Shown: one piece after another, positions 8,672 to 64,000 of the stretch
Position numbering within the stretch: position 1 is the stretch's first letter
Layout of the letters: every line of letters starts with the position of its first letter
Source of the DNA: Protoeuglena noctilucae
Taxonomy: Eukaryota
NCBI GenBank assembly: GCA_958009085.1
Contig: OY253686.1
Location: forward strand, 186,001-250,000
Reading direction: 5' to 3'
DNA: 64,000 bases
Translations under genes and position numbers: made by a program
Notes under the pieces: generated by a model
Told to the model about the DNA's origin: nothing
What the model saw: only the letters and a program-made list of their open reading frames with translations
Database searches by the model: none

Positions 8672-10731
8672 ATGGCGGGCCAGGGCGATGGAAAGGGCTG
8701 GTCCCTCCTGGACCGCATCTGTGATGCCCAGCCGCCGAGCTTGGAGCGCGTGGCGGGCCAAGAGACCGCCCGGCTGTTTCTGAAGAACTGCGGCACCCTG
8801 GTGAAGATGGGGGACAAAGAGGTGGAAGTGAAGATTGGAGAGGAGGTAAAAAGAAAGAAGGAGAAGACCATGACTTTCGGCAACGCCGTGGGCAAGTACC
8901 TCCAAATCGGCAGCTCCGATGCAGAGAGAAACATCTATGGAGATATCGTGGTCCTCACGGCAAGTGCTGAGGGTGGCAGCGTGTTGCTGGCCTTTGGCTG
9001 TCATGCACCTTCATAAGCTGTGGGACGCTTTGTTCTGCGCGTGCAGGAGACCCACATGACTGACGACGTGTCTCCCGTAAGTGATCTCATCGGAGAAGGC
9101 CAAGCCCTGGGGATCAAAGTGAAGAAGTCCGGTCCCAAGTACAATTTCTCGATGGCGTTCTCAGGTGCGCTGCTGCACCGCATCTTACAGGCAGGCTTGG
9201 CCTCACTACGCCTACCTATGCATTGGATCTAAGGTCATATCCAGGTGGGGATGCCCACATGCCAGAGATACAAGCCTGCCTGACAGCATCAATAGCACCT
9301 GGCATTCACATGCTTGCTGCGCCGAGTTCGTTTGACACCGTCGTTCTTTGGGTGCGCTTTGTTATGAAATGCCGCTCTCCTCCAACACAGGGGACTATCG
9401 CCACGGGGTCCTTGGCCGCATCACTCCGGTGGGGAGGGCCAAGGGCTTGAGCTTCTGGCATTCCAACAATGCCAACGGCAACGGCAAGATGGACCTGTTT
9501 TGCGGGCTTTCGAGAAAAACTCCTGATTCGGTCGGCAACAAGCTGAGGGGATGCGCCGAGTGGTCCATGCTTCGGGTCGACGGGAAGAACGTAGCGGTCC
9601 TCATTGCCGTGTACCTGAACAACAAACTTCACCATTCAGAGGTACAACAACTGACTTCTGAACTCACGAGGCAGCTGCAGCTTCTAAAGGACAAACTTCA
9701 AGACGCCTACCCCGGGAACATCATCTTTGCTGGGGATTTCAACAGCCACGGTAAATTCACGGGGAGGCCAGGTTTGAGGTCAACAACATCCCAGGCATTC
9801 TTGCGCGAGTTCATCGAGGAGCACAACCTGGTCGACGTTCTGCAGTATGCGGCCAAGGGGTATGTGGATGACGGTGGATTTGACCCTTACTGGACTGCGG
9901 GCCCAGTCACGGTGAGGAGCACACAGATGTCTTTGCCATGGTCAAGGCTTACTTTTAGTCACTTCCCTGCTTTACAGTTTACATTTCCCAATCGCAGGGC
10001 AACAGAAATTACATCGACCGCGTCTACGTTTCAAAGCCCCTGCTCCCGGCTGTGAAGCGTGCGGGACTGGAGGCCGCATGCGCAGACGAGGCAGGCGATG
10101 CAGACGAGGCAGACAAGGCAGACGAAACATATTCGAAGCTTTTTACCTCAGAGGTAGGTCTGGAGTCCGGGCAGACCCACGCTTGGCCTGCAAAGCAGGT
10201 TATCAGGTCATGCGACCCCTGGATTGTGCTTTGCAGGCCAACCATGCCGCCTTTGTGGGCATCCCGGCCGGCAGCCCCCAGGGACACGTCGCATCCGAGC
10301 TTGTCCAGGCATTTGAAGAGAAGGACCCGAGTCGGCCGGGGCAGCGCCGGTTTCCAGTGATTTTGCCGGGCGACAAGACTCACACCGGGGTGTTCGTCGA
10401 CTTCAACCTGGACAAGCTCCGCAGCCTCGGGGTGGACAGCAAGCAGAAGGGCAACCCCTCCAAGGCGGCTTCCAAGGCAGGACCCAAGGCAGCGGAGACC
10501 AACGAGACCAAGCCCGACGCTGAGTCTGTCACCGAGCTCGACAACGGTGTAGTGAACATGGCCATCAAAGAGGACAAGCCCGAACCGAGCAAGGCCGGAT
10601 CCTCGACTTCAGCTGGGACCTCAGCTCCTAGCGGGCCTTCTGCATCTGCGAAGAAGTGCTCGTACTGCGGTGAGCCAGGGCACAACATCACGAGGTGCCC
10701 CAAGCGCTTGGCAGAGTCTGCGGGCAAGTAA
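8672..10731 (+). CDS. Exonuclease-endonuclease-phosphatase (APE/DNase I-like) domain protein with C-terminal CCHC zinc knuckle, 5 exons
   Basis: Spliced product has LKNCGTL, DIVVLT|ETH (GC-AG intron 8960-9046), IAVYLN, IFAGDFN, YWT...NYIDRVYVS, THTGVFVDF and CSYCGEPGHNITRC. No RT domain. Confidence 0.75.
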
Positions 10732-47405: not shown

Positions 47406-50400
47406 ATGCGGCTGAACCTCAGCGACAAGGATGCAGGTGCGGCGCAGCCTGTTGCAGCTCGCATGGACCTTATGGCCGCGTTTTCCCCGGGGATCGTTAC
47501 CTGACCTTGAGCATGAGAGCCCATGTACCTGCCAGCACTCTCTCGTGCGCGCGCGCTGGCCCCTCGCGGCCTCGCTGCCAATCAAAGTGCCTTTGCACCT
47601 CTTGTCGCCGAATTCAGCGGCCCCGTGGCCGCACCGACGCGCCTCTCCTACCCGCGCTCGCACATCTCGCTATCTCTCTCCACTGCCCTCCCCACACCTG
47701 CCCCGCCGCACCTCCCAGCCCCGCGCGGTCCTCGCAGGCACGGGCGGGGAGCTCCTGTGCGCGATGACGTGGGCGTCCGGGAACGAGCTCCTCTCCGCCG
47801 GCGACGATTGCGTGCTGCAGCGATGGAGCGGCTTCGCCGACCCGCTGGGCCGCGTGGCGACGCTCCCCGCCCCTCCCGCCTGCATTGCCTTCCCGCCCTC
47901 GCAAGGCCTCTCGCCGAGCGCCCCTGCCGCCGCGGACGACGCTGTCGCCGTGGCGCTGACGGACGGCAAGGTGCTTCTGATGAATAAGTCGGGACGCGTC
48001 GAGAAGACGGTGCAGGTGAGGGCACCTGCACAGAGGAGGGGGACAGGGGGGCCCACGTACGTTAGCATGCAGCTCTAGCACGCAGCCTCAATCCATGTCA
48101 AGCAGCACTCGCAGCGCCGTCCTCACCCTCACCCTCACCGTCACCCTCACTGCCACCCTCACCCCCGCAGGCCCACCAGGGCGCGGCCATTTGCCTGGCG
48201 TGGGACGCGGACGGCGTGGCCTTCGCCACGGGCGGGGAGGACGGCGAGGTCAAGGTCTTCTCGCGAGCGGGGATGCTGCGAACGGCACTGCACCGTGGCA
48301 GTGAGGCCGTGTATGCCCTCGCCTGGTCCCCGGACAGCGCCAGGCTCGCCATCGCCGCGGGGTCCTCGGTGCTTCTGGCCTTCGTCGAGGGGTCAGGGCA
48401 GCCCACGACCTGGAAGTGAGTGGGATGGGATGGGTATGGGTGCGAGCGTGACGGTGACAGGGCTGGAGGCTCCCCCAGGCTCTGCTGCGCGTCTGCTGCA
48501 TGTGGTTGCACAGTCGCAGCCGTCGTTGTCGTCATCGCGCATAGATGATGGCAATGAATTGATCGTGACTCCTCCTCTGCTGCGCTGCAGGGCGCACGAG
48601 GGCGTGGTGCTAACCTTGTCGTGGAACGGCGTCACGGGGCGCATCGCCACCGGCGGAGAGGACTGCCGGTTCCGGGTGAGCAGCACGCGAGTCGCATGAT
48701 TCTGTTATCGGACATGTAAATCCGCCCCGCAGCGCTGCCGGGTCTCGTCGCAGCGGCAGGGTTCGCTCGCCGCACCGCCGCAGCGTGCGACTGCGAACCC
48801 GCGACCCGTCCTCTACGCCCGCCGAGTCACGATTCATTTACCACTTACTCCCGTGCAGGTTTGGGACTCGATGGGAACGCTCTTGGGCAAGTCGGAGGAG
48901 CTTTCGTCCGTGGTGACGGGCGTGGCGTGGTCTCCCCAGGGCACCCTGCTGGCCGTCGGGACCTTCAACGCGTGCCTCCTCTGCGACGCCTCCGGGAACG
49001 TGCTGAGCAAGCAGCGCGTGGCGGACGTGGGCTCCGTGTCGTCGCTCGGGTGGACCCCGGACGGGACGCGGCTGGCGGGGGCGGGGCTGCTGGGCCGCAT
49101 TTGCATGGGGGAGGTGGTGGGCGTGACGGTCGAGGACCGCGGGGCCATGGCGACGGTGGAGGGGCTGCAGAGGGTGCGCGTCACGCACATCCAGGACGAC
49201 GGGGCCGCGGAGGAGGTGCTTGAGTACCGGTGAGGGGCGGGGAGTGGGTGGTGGGTGGAAGGTGATGTGGCGATGTGATTGTTGAACGTCAATGCTAGTT
49301 TGGTGAGTTACGTTACCTTCCAAGGCATCCCCTTACCCACCACCTTTACCATTGCCACCCTCCCTTGCGCTGTCCAAGGCATCCCCTCACCACTGCCATT
49401 ACCGCCACCGCCCTTCCATGCTTTCCTCAGGGATCGCGTCGTGGGCCTCTCTGCCGGCTACGGCTACCTGGTCGTGGCCACTGCCACCCAGTGCTACGTC
49501 TACGCTGTGGGGAGGTGGGGCAGCCCCCACATCATCGATGCCAAGGGGTCCGTCCTGTTCCTCATACAGGTGATTGTATATGCTGTGATTGACATTGTTA
49601 GTACTACTGCTATGTACGTATTGTACCTGTACTTGTGCTGGCATCGAAGGTGGGGCAGCCCCCACATAATCGACGCCAAGGGGTCCGTCCTGTTCCTCAT
49701 ACAGGTGTGACTGATATGCTGTGATTCATATCGCTAGGACAGTTGCCAACCCGGTACATGAACAACAGGCATATCTGCTTATGCTGTCATGGAAGGCAGC
49801 CCCCACATCGTAGCACCCCCTCCACCCCCCTCACCCTCGCCACCCCTCTCACCCTCCCTTCACCCCTCTCCCTCACCCCCCAGGCCGACAAGTGCTTCCT
49901 GACCGCCGACTCCGTCCTCGGCATCCGCGTCTTCTCCTATGACGGCCGCGCCATGTGCAACCCCAAGATGCAGGGGACTGGTGCGGCACAGCTCACGAGG
50001 GGGCTCGTGGCCCTGGCGTCCGACACGCTCGCGGTCGTGACCAGGAACAAGCCCATGAGCGTGCAGGTGAGGGGTGGGAGGGCTGCGAGGGTGTTAAACA
50101 AGCACGCCTGTCGGCAGCACGCACCTATTCCGATGCAAAGCTTGATGCTCCCACCACTCACCGCTCCCCTTCTGCTTCAAATCCACCCCCCAGGTCCTGG
50201 ACGCGTCGTCTGGCCGCGTGGCCGGCCAGCCCATCGAGCACACGTCGCGCATCGTGGGGGTGGGGCTGAGTCAGGGTGGCTCTCCCGCCGACCGCATGGT
50301 GTCAGTGCTGGACGCCAGCGGGGACCTCTTCGTGGCACTGGTCAACAAGTGAGTGACTGCATATGGATGTAAGTTGCCATATCGGTGGGATGCACCATGT

Positions 50401-51891
50401 GCTCATGCCTGGGAACGATGGGTGGGTTGTTTGTTGTGAGAAGTGGTTTGACCATCGTAGTCACGCCCATCCACGCCCAGCCACTCACCTTGTCCCTCTC
50501 CCCTCACCCCAGGGGCCGCCTGGTCCGCATCGCGAGCGTGGTGACGGCTGCGGTGTGGCACACGGAGCAGGGGGCGCTGGCGGCGGCGGTCGATGGGTCG
50601 CTGCACGTGTGGTGGAACCCACGCATGGCCTTCCTGGATCGCGAGCTCATGGACAAGGCCAAGACGGTCAAGGAGGATGCGGCGCTGGGGAAGGCCGCGG
50701 GGCTCGTGGCGTTCCAGGTGGGTGGGGCATGCATGAGACGGCATGTAGAGTGGCTGACTGGGTGGCATGCCCTACGCACGCATTTGATGCATGTGTGATG
50801 CGGATCCTGGGTGGAAGACTCCGGTCATCGGCAATGCAGTCGTTATCAATATCATTAGTCACTTCTACCTTTCCTCTTATTCACTCCCACCATTCATCAC
50901 CCCCTTGGCATGCTCCCACTGCCGCAGGGCTCGCGTGTGGTGGCGGCAACCGCGGACGGCGTGCCGCAGGAGATCGACGTGCCGCCCTTCGCCCCGCGCC
51001 TGCACGCCCTGGCGGGGAAGGGCGCGTGGGCCGAGTGCATGCGCCTGTGCCGCTTCGCCAGGGACCCCGCAGTCTGGGCCGCGCTGGCGGGCATCGCTCT
51101 TAAGGAGCGGGAGCTCAGCACCGCCGAGGCGGCCTTCGCGGCCATCCAGGCCGCAGATCGCGTCGAGTTTGTGCAGCACCTGCGGCAGATACCCACGGGT
51201 GAGGCTGGGAGGTCGCTACAGCTGCGGGCATCGAGCAGGAAGACATCTGCGGCGAGAGTCTGCGCTCAGCGGCCTCTTCATGTCGTTTGTCATGCATCTT
51301 TTCTGCGATCCGGAGGTCCCGTGCTTCCTCCGCGCGCAGAGGAGGGCCGCAGCGCGGAGCTGGCGGCATTTGCGGGGGAGTTCGAGGCCGGGGAGGACCT
51401 GCTCCTGCGCGCGGGGCTCATCTACCGCGCGTTGGACCTCAACATGGCGCTGGTGAGGGGAAGGAGGATGCAGCGTCGACCGCAGAGAGCGCATTTGAGC
51501 CCGCTTCGAACGACGCGCGCCGTGGCCCCTGGCTGCAGTTCCGCTGGTCGCGCGCGCTGGAGCTGGCGGTCAAGCACAAGACGCACGTGGACACGGTGTT
51601 ACTGCGGCGCCAGCAGTACCTCGCGGCCGCGGGCCTCGAGGAGACGGACGGGCAGTTCCTGCAGTTCGCGGGGAAGGTGCGGGGGCGCGCAAGCTCGGCC
51701 GCGGCCGCGCTGGGATTGTACATTTGCTTCGCTGCAATCTGCCGCATGGCTCTTTAGAACCCCGCGTCGCCTGGGTGCAGGTCCCGCTCGACCCGGAGGC
51801 CATCGACAGCAAGGTGCGGCAGGAGATCGAGGCGGAGGCCGCACGGGAGGGAGCGAGACGATACCAGCCGCCCGGAGTCGCCGCCGCGTAG
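47406..51891 (+). CDS. IFT80: Intraflagellar transport protein 80 (WDR56)
   Basis: MRL...ELLSAGDD, GRVEKTVQ|AHQGA, ATGGEDGEVKVFSRAGMLR, AHEGVVL..ATGGEDCRFR|VWD, LVVATATQCYVY, WSRALELAVKHKTHVDTVL. Confidence 0.93.
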
Positions 51892-52152
51892 ATATCGCAA
51901 TCGTATCGGCGACAGGGGTGACCTGCTTGAATGTGACGTGCCAGAGCGAGCCCCTGAACCCCCTGGGCGTCACTCCAGCCCGACCACCAGCCAGATGTGG
52001 CATGACTGTAACGATCGCATGCGAGCGCCCGTGTTACCGCCGATTCCCCGTCGCCAGCTGCACACTCCTCTGGGTCCTGCGCATCTCCTGCGTTCGCTGG
52101 ACATCCAGTGCGTCGCCCATCGTGGCCTCGCTTGCTTGACTGACTCTGCAAC

Positions 52153-56104: not shown

Positions 56105-58018
56105 ATGGCCGCGCGCGGGGCGCTGTGGCAAGCGGCCAAGGGCTGCGTGGGGCACAACACAGCGTGGGGGGCTGGCTCGTCAGCCATTGCCTCTCCCGTG
56201 GATGCCATGGGTTTCTGGTGAGTTTCCACTGCGCGGTCATGTCCAATTGGGCTACGCTCGCCCAGCGGCGCAAGCGCACGGTCTCTTCCGCACCCGTGCA
56301 ACGCAGCGCCTCGCGCGGCGGCTTCGCGGGGGAAACGGCGAGGAGATGTGCCGCGACGGAGGCGACGGGGGTCTCGGACGCGCCTAGCTCGAGCGGCCGC
56401 GTCGCGGGGGAGCCGCCCGGTCGCAAGCCCCGGAAGATGGACCCGCTGCGTGGTGGGGGCCCCTGCCGCGATCGTTGCGCCGACGCGCGCGCCTCCCTTC
56501 GCCGGACGCGAGGCCCAATGTGGAGTCGCTGCTGCGCCGATCCACGCCGCTCCCCGGCCCCTCTCTGTGTCCCCAGGCCTGCGTTTTGAGAACCCCTGCG
56601 CCGTCTTGAAGAAGCAGATTCCCGGGCCTTTCGTGCTTCGAGCGACATTGCGAGGCGAAAATTTCATGGGGCACAAGGGGTCCAAGCGGTTGCGGGAGCG
56701 TGGCTTGCTCCCTGCTGTGGTCACGTAAGTAGAAAATGCGGAGCCTTCGATCATATTTTTTCGGCGATTTTCCTGGGCGCGGCCTGCGCGGTCATTTTGC
56801 GCATGCAGATGGGTTCGATATTTTTTCAAACTGCGCCGGGCGTCGCGGGCACCGGGATTGGCCCTTCCTGCTCGCAGGAACGTGTTTGGGAAGGGCGAGC
56901 ACACGCCCATCGCCGTCGACGCCCCGCACTTCACGCGCCTGCACCGCTACTTCGGCTTGGGTCTCTTCGCGCTACCCATGCGCCTCAGCTTCGCCGGAAT
57001 CGAGGTGAGGGGCGGTGCCAGGGGGCCACTTGCGGCGCTGTCCCACCTCCACCCATGCACCCTCCACCCCCTCACCTCCACCCCTGCACTCTCACCCCTC
57101 ACCTCCACCTCGTCCACTCTCCACCCCCTCCCGTGCGACCCCGCAGATCCCCGGCTTCGAGGGCCGCCCCTTCGCCCCCCAGGTCATCACCCACGACATC
57201 GACACGGTCCCCATCAGCCAGAGGGACGGGAACTTAGTGGCGCCCTCCGCCGTGGGGTTCAAGTTCGCGCCAGCCAACCAGCCAGTCATCGCGTCCGTCC
57301 CGGTCGTGCTGGGTGAGAGAGGGTAGCTGTGCTTATCGAGTGGGTGACTGGCTGGGCGCTCCGATGGGCGTGGGGCAGTGGGTGTGCGAGATTGGCTGTG
57401 GAACAGTGGCTGTGCGTCGTAGCGAAGACAGCGCGAGGCAGTGTGCCCCAACCACGACCCCTGAGCCGAGGCAGCACCCGTTGTTGACCCACCTTCCTCA
57501 CACCGTCGCAGTGGGCCAGGAGGAGAACGAGGGGTTCAAGAAGGGCCGCGCGTGGGAGGTGGAGATCCGCAGCGTGCGCGTCAAGGCCGACCGGCCCGAC
57601 CTCCTCCCGCGGTCCGTCACCATTGACGTCAAGGCGAGTGGATGGGGATAGTTACGAGGTCTTGTGCCTTGTTGTGGCCTTGAACACTGGTTGCTACTTC
57701 CCCTCTCCATCCACCGCCCGACCCGTTACCCCTCCACATCCACCGCCCAACCCTTACCCCTCTCCATCCGTCGCCCCAGCCCCCCTTCTTCCCCTCTCCA
57801 CTCATCACCAATCCCTCCTCCCTTCCCCACAGAATGACGGCGAGCAGGGCATCCACCGCCTGTCGGATGTGGCGGCCCTGCTGCCCCAGGGCGTGAGGCT
57901 GTACCGCCACAACGACCCCCGGCTCACCGTGGCGCGGGTGGTGTGGAGGAAGCAGTTTAACGGGGCGCTCGAGTACAAGGGCAACCCCAAGAAGGGCGGG
58001 GAGGGCGCGGAGGCGTGA
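56105..58018 (+). CDS. rplY: Ribosomal protein bL25/CTC, organellar (probably mitochondrial)
   Basis: GHKGSKRLRERGLLPAVV; VPVVL|VGQEENEGFKKG; LPRSVTIDV; LPQGV. Confidence 0.8.
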
Positions 58019-58625
58019 GGGGGCGTGAAGGGGGGCGAGGGCTGAGAGCACGTTTGCAAAACATGAGCGCGTTCTGCGAAGGTGCTGTGATGGACAGCGT
58101 CTGCTGCGCTGTGGTGTGCCTGTCTGATGAGAGCGAGACAGTCGTACCGTGCCATGCTGCTCTTTGCCTGGTCAATGAGACTCAACTCCTCTGAATATTG
58201 CTGGCTTTCAAGCGACGTAAAAGCTAAAGAACGGATGCAACGGGGAACGAGGCCGCTTGGGATGGTGTTATCGTGCGGTAGGTACAGGATGGATAGGCGA
58301 CAAAGCAACAAGCGTCAAGGGCCAAGGCAAAGTGCAAAGGCAACCAGGGAAATTGCGTGCTGCGGGCGGGTACGGACACTATCACTTAAGAATGCAAGAA
58401 ACCTTCTGCAGCAATTACATCATCTGGGATCTACTTCCCTCAGCAGCCCTGCTGTGCGCTACGACCTGCACGGGACCGCGCAGCCCAACTCGCGCAACCG
58501 AGGGCGCACGGTGTCCCGGAAACAAAGGGACCAGAGGGTCCCTTGCAGGCTCATTTGACAAGGCATCGGTAGCAAATATCACTTCTTCGATCGGTTGCAA
58601 TGGCTTACAGCCAACTCTGACAGCC

Positions 58626-61600
58626 TCACGCGCTCTTGGCCTTGGGTCCCTTCTTGGGTGCGGGCGGCGGGGGCGTGTACTTGACGGCCGGGCGCGGGTG
58701 GTAGGTGGTGTGGAGGAGCTCGTGCGAGCGGTGGCTGTTGGGCTCCTTGAACTCCTCCTGGGGGGAATGAGCGAGCGGGTGGGTGAGTGGGTGAGGGAGG
58801 TGAGATGAGTGTGCGGTCGAGGGTGAGTGAGAGTGCGTGGGTGAGGGAGGGCAGCAAGCTGAGCATACATGCCTCCACCGCACAACTCACTTGCAATCAG
58901 CAGATGTTCCAAAGTTACAGTGACCTGAACACAGAGCACTGCGACACCCCCTGCACCCCCCACGCACTCCTCACCTGGTACGCCAGCAGCACCTCGGCGT
59001 TCTCGTGGCTGCGCCTCTTCACGGCCCTCTCGTCGATCGAGTACAGCCCCTGCATCCGCAGCCACGCCGCCTCCCGCTCCTGGGCCTTGGGCTGCCCACC
59101 GCCGCCGATGCAGCCGCCGGGGCACGACATGACCTCGATGAAGTCGAACTCACGGTCCTCGCCCTGGGATGGAAACAGGGGAAAGACGTTAAGTCATGAA
59201 TTGATGGAATGGGTAGTACCGTAGTCACGGTCCTCGACCCTCACAAACCCTCACTCTCCCCGCACCACCACCCGAACCCATCCCTCACTTTCCTCATCCC
59301 CTCACAACCCGTACCTCACTCCCCACCACCCCACCCCCCTCACCTTCTTGAGCCCATCCACGAGCGCCCGGGCGTTGCCGATGCCGTTGGCCACGGCGAT
59401 GCGGACCTCCTTGTCAATGCCCGCAGACTCATTGACCAAACGAAGCGTGGCCTCCTTGACCCCCTCGAAACCCCGCACGGGCGTCAAGTTGAAGCTCTCC
59501 AGCTCCTTGCCCGTCACCATGTGGTAGGCCGTGCGCACGGCCGCCTCCATCACACCACCCGTGTTGCCGAAGATGACGGCGGCGCCCGTGGTCAGGCCCA
59601 TGGGAGAGTCGTAGGCCTGGGGAGTCAAAGACGCCAGGTGGATGTGCTTCATGTCCAGCATGCGGCCCAGCTCGCGCGTCGTGATGACGAAGTCCACGTC
59701 CTGGGGGACTGCGAGGGGGAGGTGTGGGGAGAGGAGGGGTTGAGGCGGAAGTAGGAAGGGAGGCCGGCGTTGTGGGCCTGGACGGGGATGCACTAGCGGG
59801 GGCGAGCTGGGAGGGTAGGCACATGCACAGATAAGCAGTTGAGCCGGCACTAACACACCCCTACCATGCGTTGCTGCATCACATGTTCCCACTCCCATGC
59901 TCCCTCACCCTTGCCAGTCGCCCCGTCACTCGCCGCCGCATCCGCCGCCGCGTGCGCATGGGGCTCCGCATGGTCATGGTGGTGATCGTGATCGTGAGCA
60001 TGGTCGTGGTCGTGGCTGTGCTCGAACATCTCCGGGTGCGCGTCGTGGGTGATCATCTCAGGTCGGTCCGCCTCGCCCTTCTTGGCCACGCACGGCATCA
60101 CCGACACCATCACCACGTCCTCGGGCTTGAAGCCCATCTTCTTAGCCCAGACGTTCTGTGGAGATGGGAGAAGGGGGATGATGTGGATGAGATGGACTTG
60201 TGAGATGAGATGCATGGGATAGCATGGAGACGATGACGACGGTGCTGCTGCGCCCGGAGGTGCAGTGCACTCACGCACGCTGTCCTCCCTTACACACATT
60301 CCTCGACAGTCCGCGCTGCTCTTGTTACAACACTCAACACCCGCACCGCCCCAACCCCACAACCCCCACCACCGCCCTCAGATCACCTTGATGACCGCCC
60401 CGACCATCTGCTGGGGGCTCTTGCAGGACGACAGGTTGTCGATGAGCTCCGGCTGCTCCTTCTCGACGAAATTGATCCAGGCGGGGCAGCACGAGGTGAA
60501 CATGGGCAGGGCAGGCGCCTCTCCTTTCACGCCCTTGCCGCCCGTCCACGCTGCCACCAGACGCCCCACCAGCTCCGTGGCCTCTTCCATGATGGTCAGA
60601 TCGGCACCGAAATTGGTGTCGAAGACGTAGTGGAAGCCCAGCTTGCGCAGAGCCGCCACCATCTGACCGGTCGAGACGTCGCCGGGGGCCATGCCAGCCG
60701 TCTCTGGGGGTGAGGGTGGAGAGAGTGGTGAGAAATGAGGCGTGGTGAGGGATGAGGGGTGCAGGGAAGGGGGTGCTGGGTGAAGGTGAGAGAGGCACAC
60801 TGATACCTAGCATGGGCCACAACACACGACACACTGCTCCACCATCGCCGCTCAGCCGCCACACCCACAACCCCACCCCACCCACCCCTCTTCCACTCAC
60901 CGCCGATGGCCACGCGCGTGGCGGGCGCCGTCTGCGCCACGACGATCTTGCGCCCGCCCTCGAGAGCGCGCAGCACGTCCCGCCACTCCTGCCGCTCGAA
61001 AAGCGTACCCGTGGGGCACACCGTGGAGCACTGCCCGCACTCGATGCAGTTGGTGTCGGCCAGCGGGACACCCGACGCGATGCCGACCCGTCGGTCCTTG
61101 CCCCGCCCCACCCAGTCCAGCACGTGCATGCCCTGCACCTCGTTGCACATGTACACGCACCGGCCGCACTTGACGCAGTGGTCGAACTCCAGCTGAAGGC
61201 CCTTGCCGCTGTGGTCCATGTACGGGCCCAGCTGCAGGCGGGGAAGAAGGGGGTGGGGTGGCGCGTGAGGGGTGAGGGTGTGTGAGTGGCGGAGGTGGGG
61301 TGAGGGCTATGATGCTGTTGATGCTATCAAGAGGGCAGGGGATGACGCAAGAGCAAGGCGCGTACCTCAATCACAGCCCCTCATCTCGCCCACACCCCTC
61401 TTCATCCATATCTCACATCCCTCATCGACCTCTCCATGTGCCCCTCACCTCATCAAAGCCCTTCTCGTCGAGCACAGCTCAGCCATTTTCTCTTACCCCT
61501 CCATGCACTCCTCACCTCGTCAAAGCCCTTCTCGTCCAGCACGGGCATCGGGGGCAGCTCCCGCGTCATGTTGGGCTCGTACTTGCGCACCAGGTCCTGG

Positions 61601-62180
61601 AACTCGCAGTCCCCATTCACCGGGCAGTGCATGCAGTCCTTGGGGTGGCAAGAGACCAGGTCCTCCAGTCGCGACTTGACCGCATCCAACACCTTTGGGG
61701 AATCGGTCACGACCTCCATACCGGCCTCCATCCGCGTCTTGCAGGCCGGCTTCATCTTGCCGTTCACCTCCACACCGCACAGGCGGCACGAGCCGGGCTC
61801 GTTGCCCTCGAGGCGCGGGTGGTGGCAGAGGTGCGGGATGTAGAAGCCGGCCTCCAGCGCGGCGCTCAACACCGAGTCGCCCTCCGCCACGGAGACCGTC
61901 TTGCCGTTGATCGTCACCTCGAAGTGACGCTCCGCTTCGTGCTTCTTGCGATCGTCGGGGGTGAACCTGCGAACATCCAGCGAGAGCGCACAGATCGAAT
62001 TGCCACATCGCATCAACGCAGGCGCGCGGCGCAGCGGAGGTGCCCGAGTGTGGACAGGGACTCACCAGACCCTAGGACGCGGCGCGTTCTCGAACCGCGC
62101 CACCAGACGGCTGCCGCGAAGGTGCTTCTGGGACACAGCACGCCCCGAGACCCCACCGGGCGCGAGGCCGGCCGCGGGGC
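58626..62180 (-). CDS. hydA: [FeFe]-hydrogenase with N-terminal F-domain (2Fe-2S, His-ligated 4Fe-4S, two 4Fe-4S) and H-domain; start codon unresolved
   Basis: [56 protein letters not shown]-cluster motifs [40 protein letters not shown]. Confidence 0.97.
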
Positions 62181-62214
62181 GCCCGACGGCCGGCCTCGTG
62201 CCTGTTGGGGTCTC
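62147..62214. repeat. 68-bp imperfect palindrome at the hydA/hydG junction
   Basis: Left arm gagaccccaccgggcgcgaggccggccgcggggc versus reverse complement of right arm gagaccccaacaggcacgaggccggccgtcgggc: 29/34 identical, no spacer, centre GGGCGCCC. Confidence 0.95.
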
Positions 62215-64000
62215 CTCGCACCGGTTGGTGCGCGCGGAGTACAAGGCCCCCCATGCGCCGGAGGATGTGCATGTGAAGAAGACCTGGAAGGATTACGGCT
62301 GGCGTGATCCCCACTGGGAGAAGTTTGGCGGGGCAAGCGCGTGGTCCGTGGAGACCGAGACGTTCCACACCTACAAGTGAGCTCTTTATTCGAGTGGTTG
62401 CAGCGGTATATCTTGAGGTCCTGTGCTGTACTGTTGTCGAGTTGCACACAGCGCGTCCTGCGGCCGCCTTACAGGGCCCCATTGTGTGCGAGCAACCCAG
62501 CGAGCGAGCACATGCAGACGGCCGTGCGTCGCACCCCCGCAGGCACCCGAGCGAGATCATCCAGCACGAGCTGATCGAGTCGCTTCTGGAAAGTACAAAG
62601 GACGCGGCGAAGGACCACGCGCGCGTCCGCGAGATCCTGCACAACGCTCGGTGAACCCTGCGTGTTTCCCGCGCCCGCCGCGCCTCTGCCTCTGCCGCTC
62701 CCGGCCGCTTCAACCTCTCCTGCGCTCTGTTATTCCAGGGAGCGTGCATTCCTCAAGGACTGGCAGCCCATCACGGGCGGCGGGGAGTACGTGCAGGGTC
62801 TTTCTTACGAGGAGATGGCAACACTCCTCAACACCGACCCGGAGGACGAGTCGCTGATGCAGGAGATCTTCGATACCGCGTTTGCGATCAAGGAGCGCAT
62901 CTACGGCAACCGCATCGTGCTCTTCGCGCCCCTGTACCTCGCCAACCACTGCATGAACGACTGCCAATACTGCGCCTTCCGCGTCAAGAACAAGGGCATC
63001 GAGCGGTGAGGCGGCGGGGCGGTAGATACGCGCAGGGGGATGCAACGCGAGTGATGGGAGGCGTGGCAGCTTCGCGGTTATGCGAGAGAGGCAGCTTTTT
63101 ACGCTCCAATGTCGCGGCCACGTTTGCGCCGCCCCACGACCACCACAGCGCCATCTTACCCACCCCACCAGCACCTCACCTTGCCCCCCGCAGTGTGTCG
63201 ATGACGCACGACGAGATCCGCCGCGAGGTCGAGGCCCTGGAGCGCATGGGTCACCGCCGCCTGCTGGTGCTGACGGGGGAGAGCCCCAAGTACACGTTCG
63301 ACACCTTCCTGGGGGCACTCAAGGTCATCAAGGTGAGAGCGGCCGTATAGCAGAAAGCATCAAGTGCCTTTCCCTCACAAGCGCCCCCACTGCCACCCGC
63401 AGTGCCACCCGCAGTGCCCCCCCCCCCCTGCCACCCCCCCTGCCACCCCCACTGTCACCCCCACCCTCCCCATACCTCCCCATTTCCCCAGGACGTGACC
63501 ACGGAGCCCTGCGGCTCCATCCGCCGCATGAACGTCGAGATCCCCGCCCTGTCCGTTTCTGACATGAAGCGCCTCAAGTCCCTCGACTGCGTGGGCACCT
63601 TCACGCTCTTCCAGGAGACTTACCACCGGCCCACCTTCGAGCAGATGCACCTCGCGGGGCCCAAGGTGAGGGGAGAATGAGGGAGGGTGTGGGGTTGTGT
63701 GGGGCTAGGCGTGGCACGCTGTGGTTGAGTGGCTGAGCAGATGAACCTGGCTGGTGCTGACCATGGACAGTGCTCTCCCTCCCTCTCTCACTTCCCATAC
63801 GCAATCTAGTCTCACAATACTCATATCTCTCTCCACCCCACCTGCAGTCCGACTACGACCACCGCGTGCTGACCATGGACCGCGCCTTCCGCGGCGGCAT
63901 CGACGACGTGGGCGTGGGGGTCCTGTTCGGACTCCACGACTACCGGTTCGAGTGCATGGCGCTGCTGATGCACGCCAACCACCTTTTGGAGGAGTACAAG
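62181..64000 (+). CDS. hydG: [FeFe]-hydrogenase maturase HydG (radical SAM); runs off window end, start codon unresolved
   Basis: AWSVETET, IKERIYGNRIVLFAPLYLANHCMNDCQYCAF (CX3CX2C), GHRRLLVLTGE, SIRRMNVEI, LFQETYH, MDRAFRGGIDDVGVGVLFGL. Confidence 0.97.

Follow-up and report, generated by a model that had tools for sequence, protein, structure and literature searches.

A zero-spacer palindrome between hydA and hydG of Protoeuglena noctilucae as a probable assembly collapse within a shared inverted 5′ module

The genome assembly of Protoeuglena noctilucae contains two hydrogenase-pathway genes, hydA on the minus strand and hydG on the plus strand, which meet head to head in contig OY253686.1. 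The stretch of DNA analysed here, referred to as the window, covers 64,000 nucleotides (nt) of this contig (positions 186,001 to 250,000), and all coordinates below are those of the window. At the meeting point lies a 68-bp palindrome without spacer (62147-62214), and neither gene possesses a start codon on its side of it. This raises the question of how two genes that are otherwise intact could begin at such a point. By comparing the window with contigs from public sequencing runs, it was found that the palindrome is probably a junction resulting from the loss of DNA, namely a collapse inside a local inverted repeat, which most likely took place during assembly.

The palindrome exceeds chance expectation. 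Its 34-nt arms are 85% complementary, with mismatched pairs at 62176/62185, 62175/62186, 62162/62199, 62158/62203, and 62156/62205, and the similarity of the arms ends outside 62146/62215. No centre in 20 shuffles of the window reached 29 of 34 matches. As single-stranded DNA, the palindrome folds with -39.5 kcal/mol (z = -6.4), and equal folding was observed in none of 200 shuffles. It is the sole zero-spacer inverted repeat of the two pairs found in the window (arms of at least 20 nt and a distance of at most 60 nt). The second pair, at 10178-10246, has 20-nt arms (90% complementary) and a 29-nt spacer.

A preliminary description of this locus had reported that the two coding frames diverge from the centre of the palindrome and that hydA and hydG share homologous N-terminal peptides; both the arms and the translations were found to be as described. 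The likeness of the two peptides arises because the palindrome is located there and both frames run in the same phase about its centre. Beyond the arms, RLVAR in hydA resembles RLVRA in hydG. A local DNA alignment of the outer parts reached a score of 16, compared with a shuffle mean of 15.6 (243 of 500 shuffles were as good), and the idea that the presequence homology reaches past the palindrome arms was dropped since the alignment score was no better than that of shuffles.

The lack of start codons, which had also been pointed out, holds for both genes. The hydG frame contains no ATG, and the plus strand as a whole has none from 61841 to 62252, the nearest ones being located at 61838 and then at 62253, 62265, and 62271. 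Moreover, Met is absent from the hydG frame over 61928-62380. The first Met of hydG falls inside the conserved radical S-adenosylmethionine (SAM) part, and residue 4 of exon 3 already corresponds to residue 39 of 4wcx_A (one of the two best solved chains, together with 4rtb_A), so the true start must lie upstream. The three ATGs at 62253, 62265, and 62271 share one frame that ends with TGA at 62274-62276; they lie inside hydG exon 1, out of its frame, and beyond 61838 no other plus-strand ATG occurs up to 62500, where the scanned stretch ends. On the other strand, the hydA frame reaches TAA (62293-62295) before any ATG. The hydA coding sequence is incomplete in the window, with no Met in frame back to this stop or upstream of the 2Fe-2S domain. 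As the first Met of the frame sits within the 2Fe-2S domain and exon 2 aligns near the beginning of the clostridial hydrogenase chain 1c4a_A (residues 4-126, residue 17 of the exon corresponding to residue 4 of the chain), the true start of hydA must be upstream of 62194.

Evidence for the missing DNA comes from public sequencing data. Six runs, X1 and X2 among them, contain 0.99 of 209 sampled words of sequence. Logan contigs, rather than raw reads, of four runs were compared with positions 58000-64000 of the window: X3, which belongs to an organism-labelled study, and the metatranscriptomes X9, X10, and X11, of which X9 derives from a sample flagged as a possible origin of the window. In all four runs, a contig was found that fits the window up to 62194 and then diverges from it. 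The same 30 loose letters follow 62194 in X3, X10, and X11, and the continuation extends for at least 255 nt in the X3 shared contig and for 506 nt in record 10 of X11. In X9, record 21 represents the spliced hydA mRNA, which is colinear with the window over 62066-62194 and then carries 108 further letters.

The breaks in the genomic contigs are arranged as mirror images. On the hydA side, record 18 of X3 and record 4 of X10 stop at 62192, which equals 62162 + 30, i.e., the final position of the last 31-mer in which the arms can still be told apart. On the hydG side, record 19 of X3 and record 5 of X10 begin at 62169, the mirror position of 62192, and show 4 mismatched letters each. When 62163-62194 is replaced by its reverse complement, exactly 4 mismatches with the window arise (62175, 62176, 62185, and 62186), all of them within 18 nt of the starts of the hydG-side contigs. 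Since the 4 mismatches are so near the contig starts, the table of differences, which omits contig ends, is empty. A start at 62169 together with 4 mismatches is what would be expected of a mirror copy, which indicates that on the true hydG side the hydA arm is present as its reverse complement. These observations bear out the earlier proposal of a shared inverted-repeat 5′ module, the centre of which the assembly lacks.

The sequence beyond 62194 was then sought in the window. Neither of the two loose-end sequences has a match in the 64 kb at up to 3 mismatches, and their exon and intron parts have none at up to 2 mismatches. An upstream hydA exon or intron end elsewhere in the window, which was also considered, was dropped owing to the absence of matches. 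The 30-letter loose end also has no match among metagenome contigs. Among the 28 pieces listed, no clean crossing of 62194/62195 without mismatches was observed, and no contig among those listed joins the hydA and hydG flanks through the missing centre. As is characteristic of an assembly mis-join, the letters at the junction are unsupported by the contigs listed and the window lacks the continuation. The open frame across the junction (P0021) is known as one protein, which forms a 90%-identity cluster of one member and comes from one 502,807-bp contig. In addition, a run of exactly 200 N at 2032-2231 marks a scaffold gap, implying that the assembly is a scaffolded draft. The rough depth of X3 in the bin 62020-62220 was 403.7, compared with 275.2 and 345.4 in the neighbouring bins, giving approximately 486 for the 32-nt shared contig, which is above either flank. 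This excess would fit two copies of the module and is a weak hint, as other contigs outside those listed could contribute to it.

Based on these data, hydA and hydG would each carry a copy of one 5′ module, and in this layout the copies would face in opposite directions. They are alike at 13 of 16 positions in their outer part (62147-62162 versus 62199-62214), and from 62163 inward they are identical and share k-mers. The identical part may extend over a few hundred nt, provided that Logan contigs end at branch points. Within the arm lies a small near-palindrome (Table 1), where 24 of 28 positions are alike between the arm and its own reverse complement. By virtue of this near-palindrome, inverted copies gain an overlap resembling a direct repeat. 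As arm and inverted copy are in this way alike in direct orientation, the window could switch from the hydA copy to the hydG copy within CGGCCGGC, and all DNA between the switch points, at least 506 nt, would be omitted. Both start codons would be placed in the missing DNA, and assembly loss is the most likely reason for their absence. The preliminary description had suggested a deletion at microhomology in the 8-mer at the centre of the palindrome, GGGCGCCC. The underlying idea appears to be right, and it is the location that needs to be revised, the overlap being CGGCCGGC rather than the central 8-mer.

The hydA mRNA contig offers a view of what the lost DNA may contain. Its loose letters match the genomic ones for 17 nt and then diverge, and the genomic point of divergence follows ...TTCTCGCAG, which reads as a putative splice acceptor. 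In mRNA sense, the common part is preceded by ...TCGTCGTCGTTCTCGCAG in the genomic contigs and by ...GGCCTGCCGCAG in the mRNA. This pattern would be explained by an eighth hydA intron whose acceptor lies 12 nt past 62194, and by an exon upstream of it that measures no less than about 96 nt. The lost DNA would then include the remaining 12 nt or so of the hydA presequence exon, the intron, and the upstream exon, and the ATG would be carried by that exon or by one further up. By hand translation, the hydA frame is open through the 30 known loose letters. By symmetry, the same layout would be expected for hydG, which may likewise use its copy of the module as coding sequence. The full presequence exon would measure 141 nt in hydA and 222 nt in hydG, and both exons would open with one base of a split codon; with this shared phase, the same kind of upstream exon would fit in frame in either gene. 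Two proposals of the preliminary description are at odds with the mRNA contig. One was that an ATG at 62272 could be spliced over a 94-nt intron (62221-62128) into the hydA frame; the contig is instead colinear with the window through this region and leaves it at 62194. The other, truly overlapping 5′ ends of the two genes, is not seen in this contig.

Several points weigh against a collapse. Only contigs were compared, and a clean bridge over 62194/62195 could be present in 47 pieces and 7 loose ends outside those listed. The comparison leaves out the possible source runs X1 and X2, and the collapsed form could exist in that sample. The mirror image on the hydG side was deduced from contig start position and mismatch count, not from contig letters. 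An overlap of 8 nt is too short for a k-mer assembler, and the in-silico route by which it could have acted, such as end-overlap merging or gap closing, is a guess. The 5′ end of the hydG transcript is not shown by any contig listed, that of X9 starting only near 62328. Furthermore, the adjacency of hydA and hydG is seen in the window alone, whose joining letters differ from those of the contigs.

This last point leads to the strongest competing explanation, a chimeric join, in which module copies would belong to hydA and hydG genes that are not neighbours or are spaced more widely in another layout, and two contig ends would have been merged on the false overlap offered by the near-palindrome. 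The local graph, with two flanks converging on one shared contig, would be identical for adjacent and for distant copies, so that the window is the only source for their adjacency, and the junction is not a valid k-mer path in either case. In the available part of PMC4416025, HYDEF is the partner of HYDG in Volvox, Chlamydomonas, and Chlorella variabilis, and HYDA is found near other HYD genes only in Volvox, which would fit separate loci. On the other hand, the window belongs to a long contig (502,807 bp), the sequence on either side of the junction is matched by X3 contigs with 0 mismatches, and a local collapse needs fewer coincidences than the joining of unlinked loci at precisely mirrored ends. 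A chimeric join is considered unlikely, while deserving more weight than the explanations that follow.

It is also conceivable, with a rather low probability, that the deletion is real. Slippage or recombination in vivo at the near-palindrome, in part of the source population, would have produced a hydrogenase-null haplotype that lacks start codons and promoter. Strong hairpin sites with short overlaps are the kind of place where palindrome-mediated deletions happen, and the 8-nt overlap lies inside a strongly hairpin-folding sequence; the source runs X1 and X2, where such an allele might be found, are outside the comparison. However, the uncollapsed form was observed in all four runs compared, including RNA from the possible source sample, and both genes are intact in other respects (open frames, canonical splice sites), which argues for an assembly fault. 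Moreover, the collapsed open reading frame is known from a single contig.

An invertible cassette had also been put forward, in which one central promoter and ATG exon would flip between the arms and serve hydA or hydG according to its orientation. Identical inverted arms around a centre, as suggested above, form the layout that such a switch needs, and the splice phase of the arm exon, by our own reckoning, suits both genes. Nevertheless, there is no evidence for two orientations, which contigs cannot reveal, an either/or switch is physiologically implausible for a hydrogenase and a maturase that are needed simultaneously, and RNA-library contigs of both genes were present in one run (X9). 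This explanation is very unlikely. Least credible of all is a window that is correct as it stands, with non-AUG starts or with start exons within each other's territory: both frames are indeed open across the palindrome, but 62194 is where both the contig of the spliced hydA mRNA and the genomic contigs part from the window, and their continuation is nowhere in the 64 kb.

Table 1. Features of the hydA-hydG locus in window coordinates
Feature	Position	Strand	Remarks
hydA gene, part within the window	58216-62194	-	8 exons, 7 GT..AG introns; 719-codon open frame without start codon; 410-nt 3′ untranslated region
hydA intron between presequence exon and 2Fe-2S domain exon	61967-62065	-	
hydA presequence exon, 5′ end cut in the window	62066-62194	-	Joint 61964/62064 (cut +2) in the mRNA contig, 131 nt on that side, then 108 loose letters
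Palindrome, left arm	62147-62180		Genuine hydA-side sequence coding for part of the hydA presequence on the minus strand; X3 contig 18 spans 60841-62192 with 0 other letters
Palindrome, right arm (mosaic)	62181-62214		62181-62186 hydA-side; 62187-62194 common to both sides; 62195-62214 hydG-side
Small near-palindrome within the arm	62167-62194		GCCGGCCG ... CGGCCGGC; read from the sequence
Junction overlap CGGCCGGC	62187-62194		Presumed switch point between the hydA-side arm and the hydG-side arm; 506 nt or more of true sequence lacking beyond 62194
hydG gene, part within the window	62195-64000	+	6 exon pieces, 5 GT..AG introns, frame open to the window end; truncated there near position 262 of 470 in the HydG profile, so that the C-terminal domain with the auxiliary cluster would lie outside
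hydG first exon, 5′ end cut in the window	62195-62376	+	Codes LVPVGVSSHRLVRAEYKAPHAPEDVHVKK...HTYK; joint 62376/62543 with GT..AG ends

The identities of the two genes, as given in the preliminary description, agree with domain and family matches. For hydA, record 21 of X9 (2679 nt, from an RNA library) is an mRNA from which all 7 introns of the window have been spliced out, and the frame obtained by joining the exons with a script is open for 719 codons from 62193 to the stop. The exons match Fer2_4, NADH-G_4Fe-4S_3, a Fer4 dicluster domain, Fe_hyd_lg_C, and Fe_hyd_SSU. The H-domain is represented by PF02906 on 4 exon open reading frames (best E = 2.5e-38) and by PF02256 on one, whereas the F-domain, with a 2Fe-2S, a His-ligated 4Fe-4S, and two 4Fe-4S clusters, is represented by PF13510 (E = 1.1e-18), PF10588 (E = 2e-9), and PF12838 (E = 3e-9). 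According to this domain order, the predicted product of hydA is an M3-type [FeFe]-hydrogenase. When exon 2 was compared with longer proteins, 18 matches were obtained among 805 candidates, the best being 50% identical and the named ones bacterial; the full protein of the organism itself was not found among them. In the same protein collection, the presequence region yielded 2 candidates, none of which scored; the collection therefore lacks the spliced proteins of this organism. With exon 2 as a protein query, metagenome contigs gave 10 loci at 35-37% identity, which were judged bacterial by identity alone.

The hydA protein has two further peculiarities. In the spliced translation, a His/Asp-rich insert is present in the hydrogenase H-domain (exon 59909-60155, minus strand), which resembles a metal-binding stretch. 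A Pro/Lys-rich tail ends the protein, past the small-subunit-like domain (last exon, 58216-58757, minus strand).

For hydG, 6 open-frame pieces were scanned, and 3 of them matched TIGR03955 (HydG) best (E = 4e-21, 8e-12, and 4.5e-18); being a fragment, each of these scores under the whole-protein cut-off of this family. The CX3CX2C motif is present as CMNDCQYC in the spliced translation. The best family match and this motif identify the plus-strand gene as a predicted radical-SAM maturase, HydG. Comparison of hydG exon 1 with 1.84 billion protein representatives produced 1 match, the collapsed open reading frame of the window itself. Among the contigs listed, no RNA contig reaches the spliced 5′ end of hydG.

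Some irregularities were observed in the RNA contigs of hydG. The X9 contig shows an odd joint at 62642-62738 (intron 2), with AA..CA ends, 8 letters between the sides, and a depth of 5.8. A clean GT..AG option at 62651-62738 keeps the frame, and the odd joint is probably an alignment quirk or an error of a low-depth contig. In X10, the RNA depth was 81 and 97 in the bins 62422-62622 and 63427-63627, compared with values below 7 elsewhere, and loose ends occur at 62603 and 63530; these bins seem to hold short contigs from another source, e.g., the hydG of another organism or another transcript.

The N-terminal extensions of the two proteins are also similar in composition. In hydA, 34 residues (PAVGRP...SRLVARF) without Asp or Glu precede the mature domain, and in hydG, the extension comprises 23 residues up to LVRA. 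Both extensions are free of acidic residues, rich in Ala, Arg, Gly, Ser, and Val, and located upstream of the parts that align to bacterial chains. Judging by a check of composition, they resemble organellar targeting presequences.

If a collapse is accepted, the startless and promoterless look of both genes would be due only to the DNA missing at 62194/62195, and gene models, open reading frame calls, or regulatory analyses built on the junction would be wrong; P0021 is already part of a public protein collection. Beyond the defect itself, a duplicated 5′ piece, coding in part and identical in its inner portion, appears to be common to two genes that are unrelated but functionally coupled. 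Tentatively, and with somewhat less confidence than in the collapse, it may be proposed that hydA and hydG are arranged head to head with mirror-image 5′ modules (promoter region, ATG exon, intron, and start of the presequence exon), which are kept identical by gene conversion. In a bolder form of this idea, the centre between the arms would be able to flip. If the mirror-image arrangement is true, common DNA would turn on the expression of the hydrogenase and of the maturase responsible for its cofactor, and a common peptide would direct both proteins to one compartment. A module that holds both a promoter and an ATG exon would provide a compact means for the co-regulation and co-targeting of an enzyme and its assembly factor, and the locus would be a natural example of presequence sharing by duplication.

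Elsewhere in the window, at about 48066-52136 on the plus strand, several open reading frame pieces match WD40, the second beta-propeller of IFT80, and the IFT80/172 TPR domain, marking an intraflagellar-transport gene; the organism presumably builds flagella or cilia.

Several known systems offer comparisons with this locus. In the available part of PMC4416025, HYDEF lies next to HYDG in Volvox, Chlamydomonas, and Chlorella variabilis, the two being located on opposite strands about 0.4 kb apart in Volvox (Table 2 of that paper), and shared 5′ sequence is not mentioned there for these pairs. As in the algal HYDEF-HYDG pair described there, hydrogenase-pathway genes are close together in the window, which would permit joint control. 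In contrast to that pair, the partner of hydG is here the structural gene hydA, in an adjacency that depends on a faulty junction, and transcribed, probably coding 5′ sequence is shared as an inverted duplication, which goes beyond a mere intergenic promoter. In the open-access literature, no description was found of a hydA-hydG pair that shares a duplicated 5′ piece.

Draft genomes are subject to collapse or mis-joining at inverted repeats and palindromes, and in the usual case the spacer between long identical arms is lost. The present junction resembles such cases in that its letters are unsupported by the listed contigs, the contig breaks are mirrored one k-mer inside the last arm difference, and the real sequence is absent. 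It differs from the usual case in its switch point, which is an 8-nt overlap in a small near-palindrome within the arm.

With regard to the enzyme, HYDA with F-cluster domains was reported for Chlorella variabilis NC64A and Nannochloropsis in the available part of PMC3897525. The hydA product shares with M3-type hydrogenases (1c4a_A, with further entries 1feh and 3c8y) the domain order of 2Fe-2S, His-ligated 4Fe-4S, two 4Fe-4S, and H-domain. It departs from the clostridial chain by its N-terminal presequence, the insert in the H-domain, and the C-terminal tail; this comparison concerns the clostridial chain, with named algal HYDA proteins outside it.

Targeting presequences can be gained by duplication or shuffling of 5′ exons. 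The hydA-hydG locus resembles such a gain by exon duplication, since unrelated mature proteins have the same acid-free, Ala/Arg/Gly-rich N-terminus on a separate 5′ exon piece. Unlike the products of old exon shuffling, the copies here apparently share one locus, in mirror orientation, and their inner parts are identical, which suggests ongoing gene conversion rather than old shuffling. The underlying feature is a combination of known kinds, divergent co-regulated gene pairs and presequence gain by duplication, and the zero-spacer palindrome itself is most likely a sequence defect.

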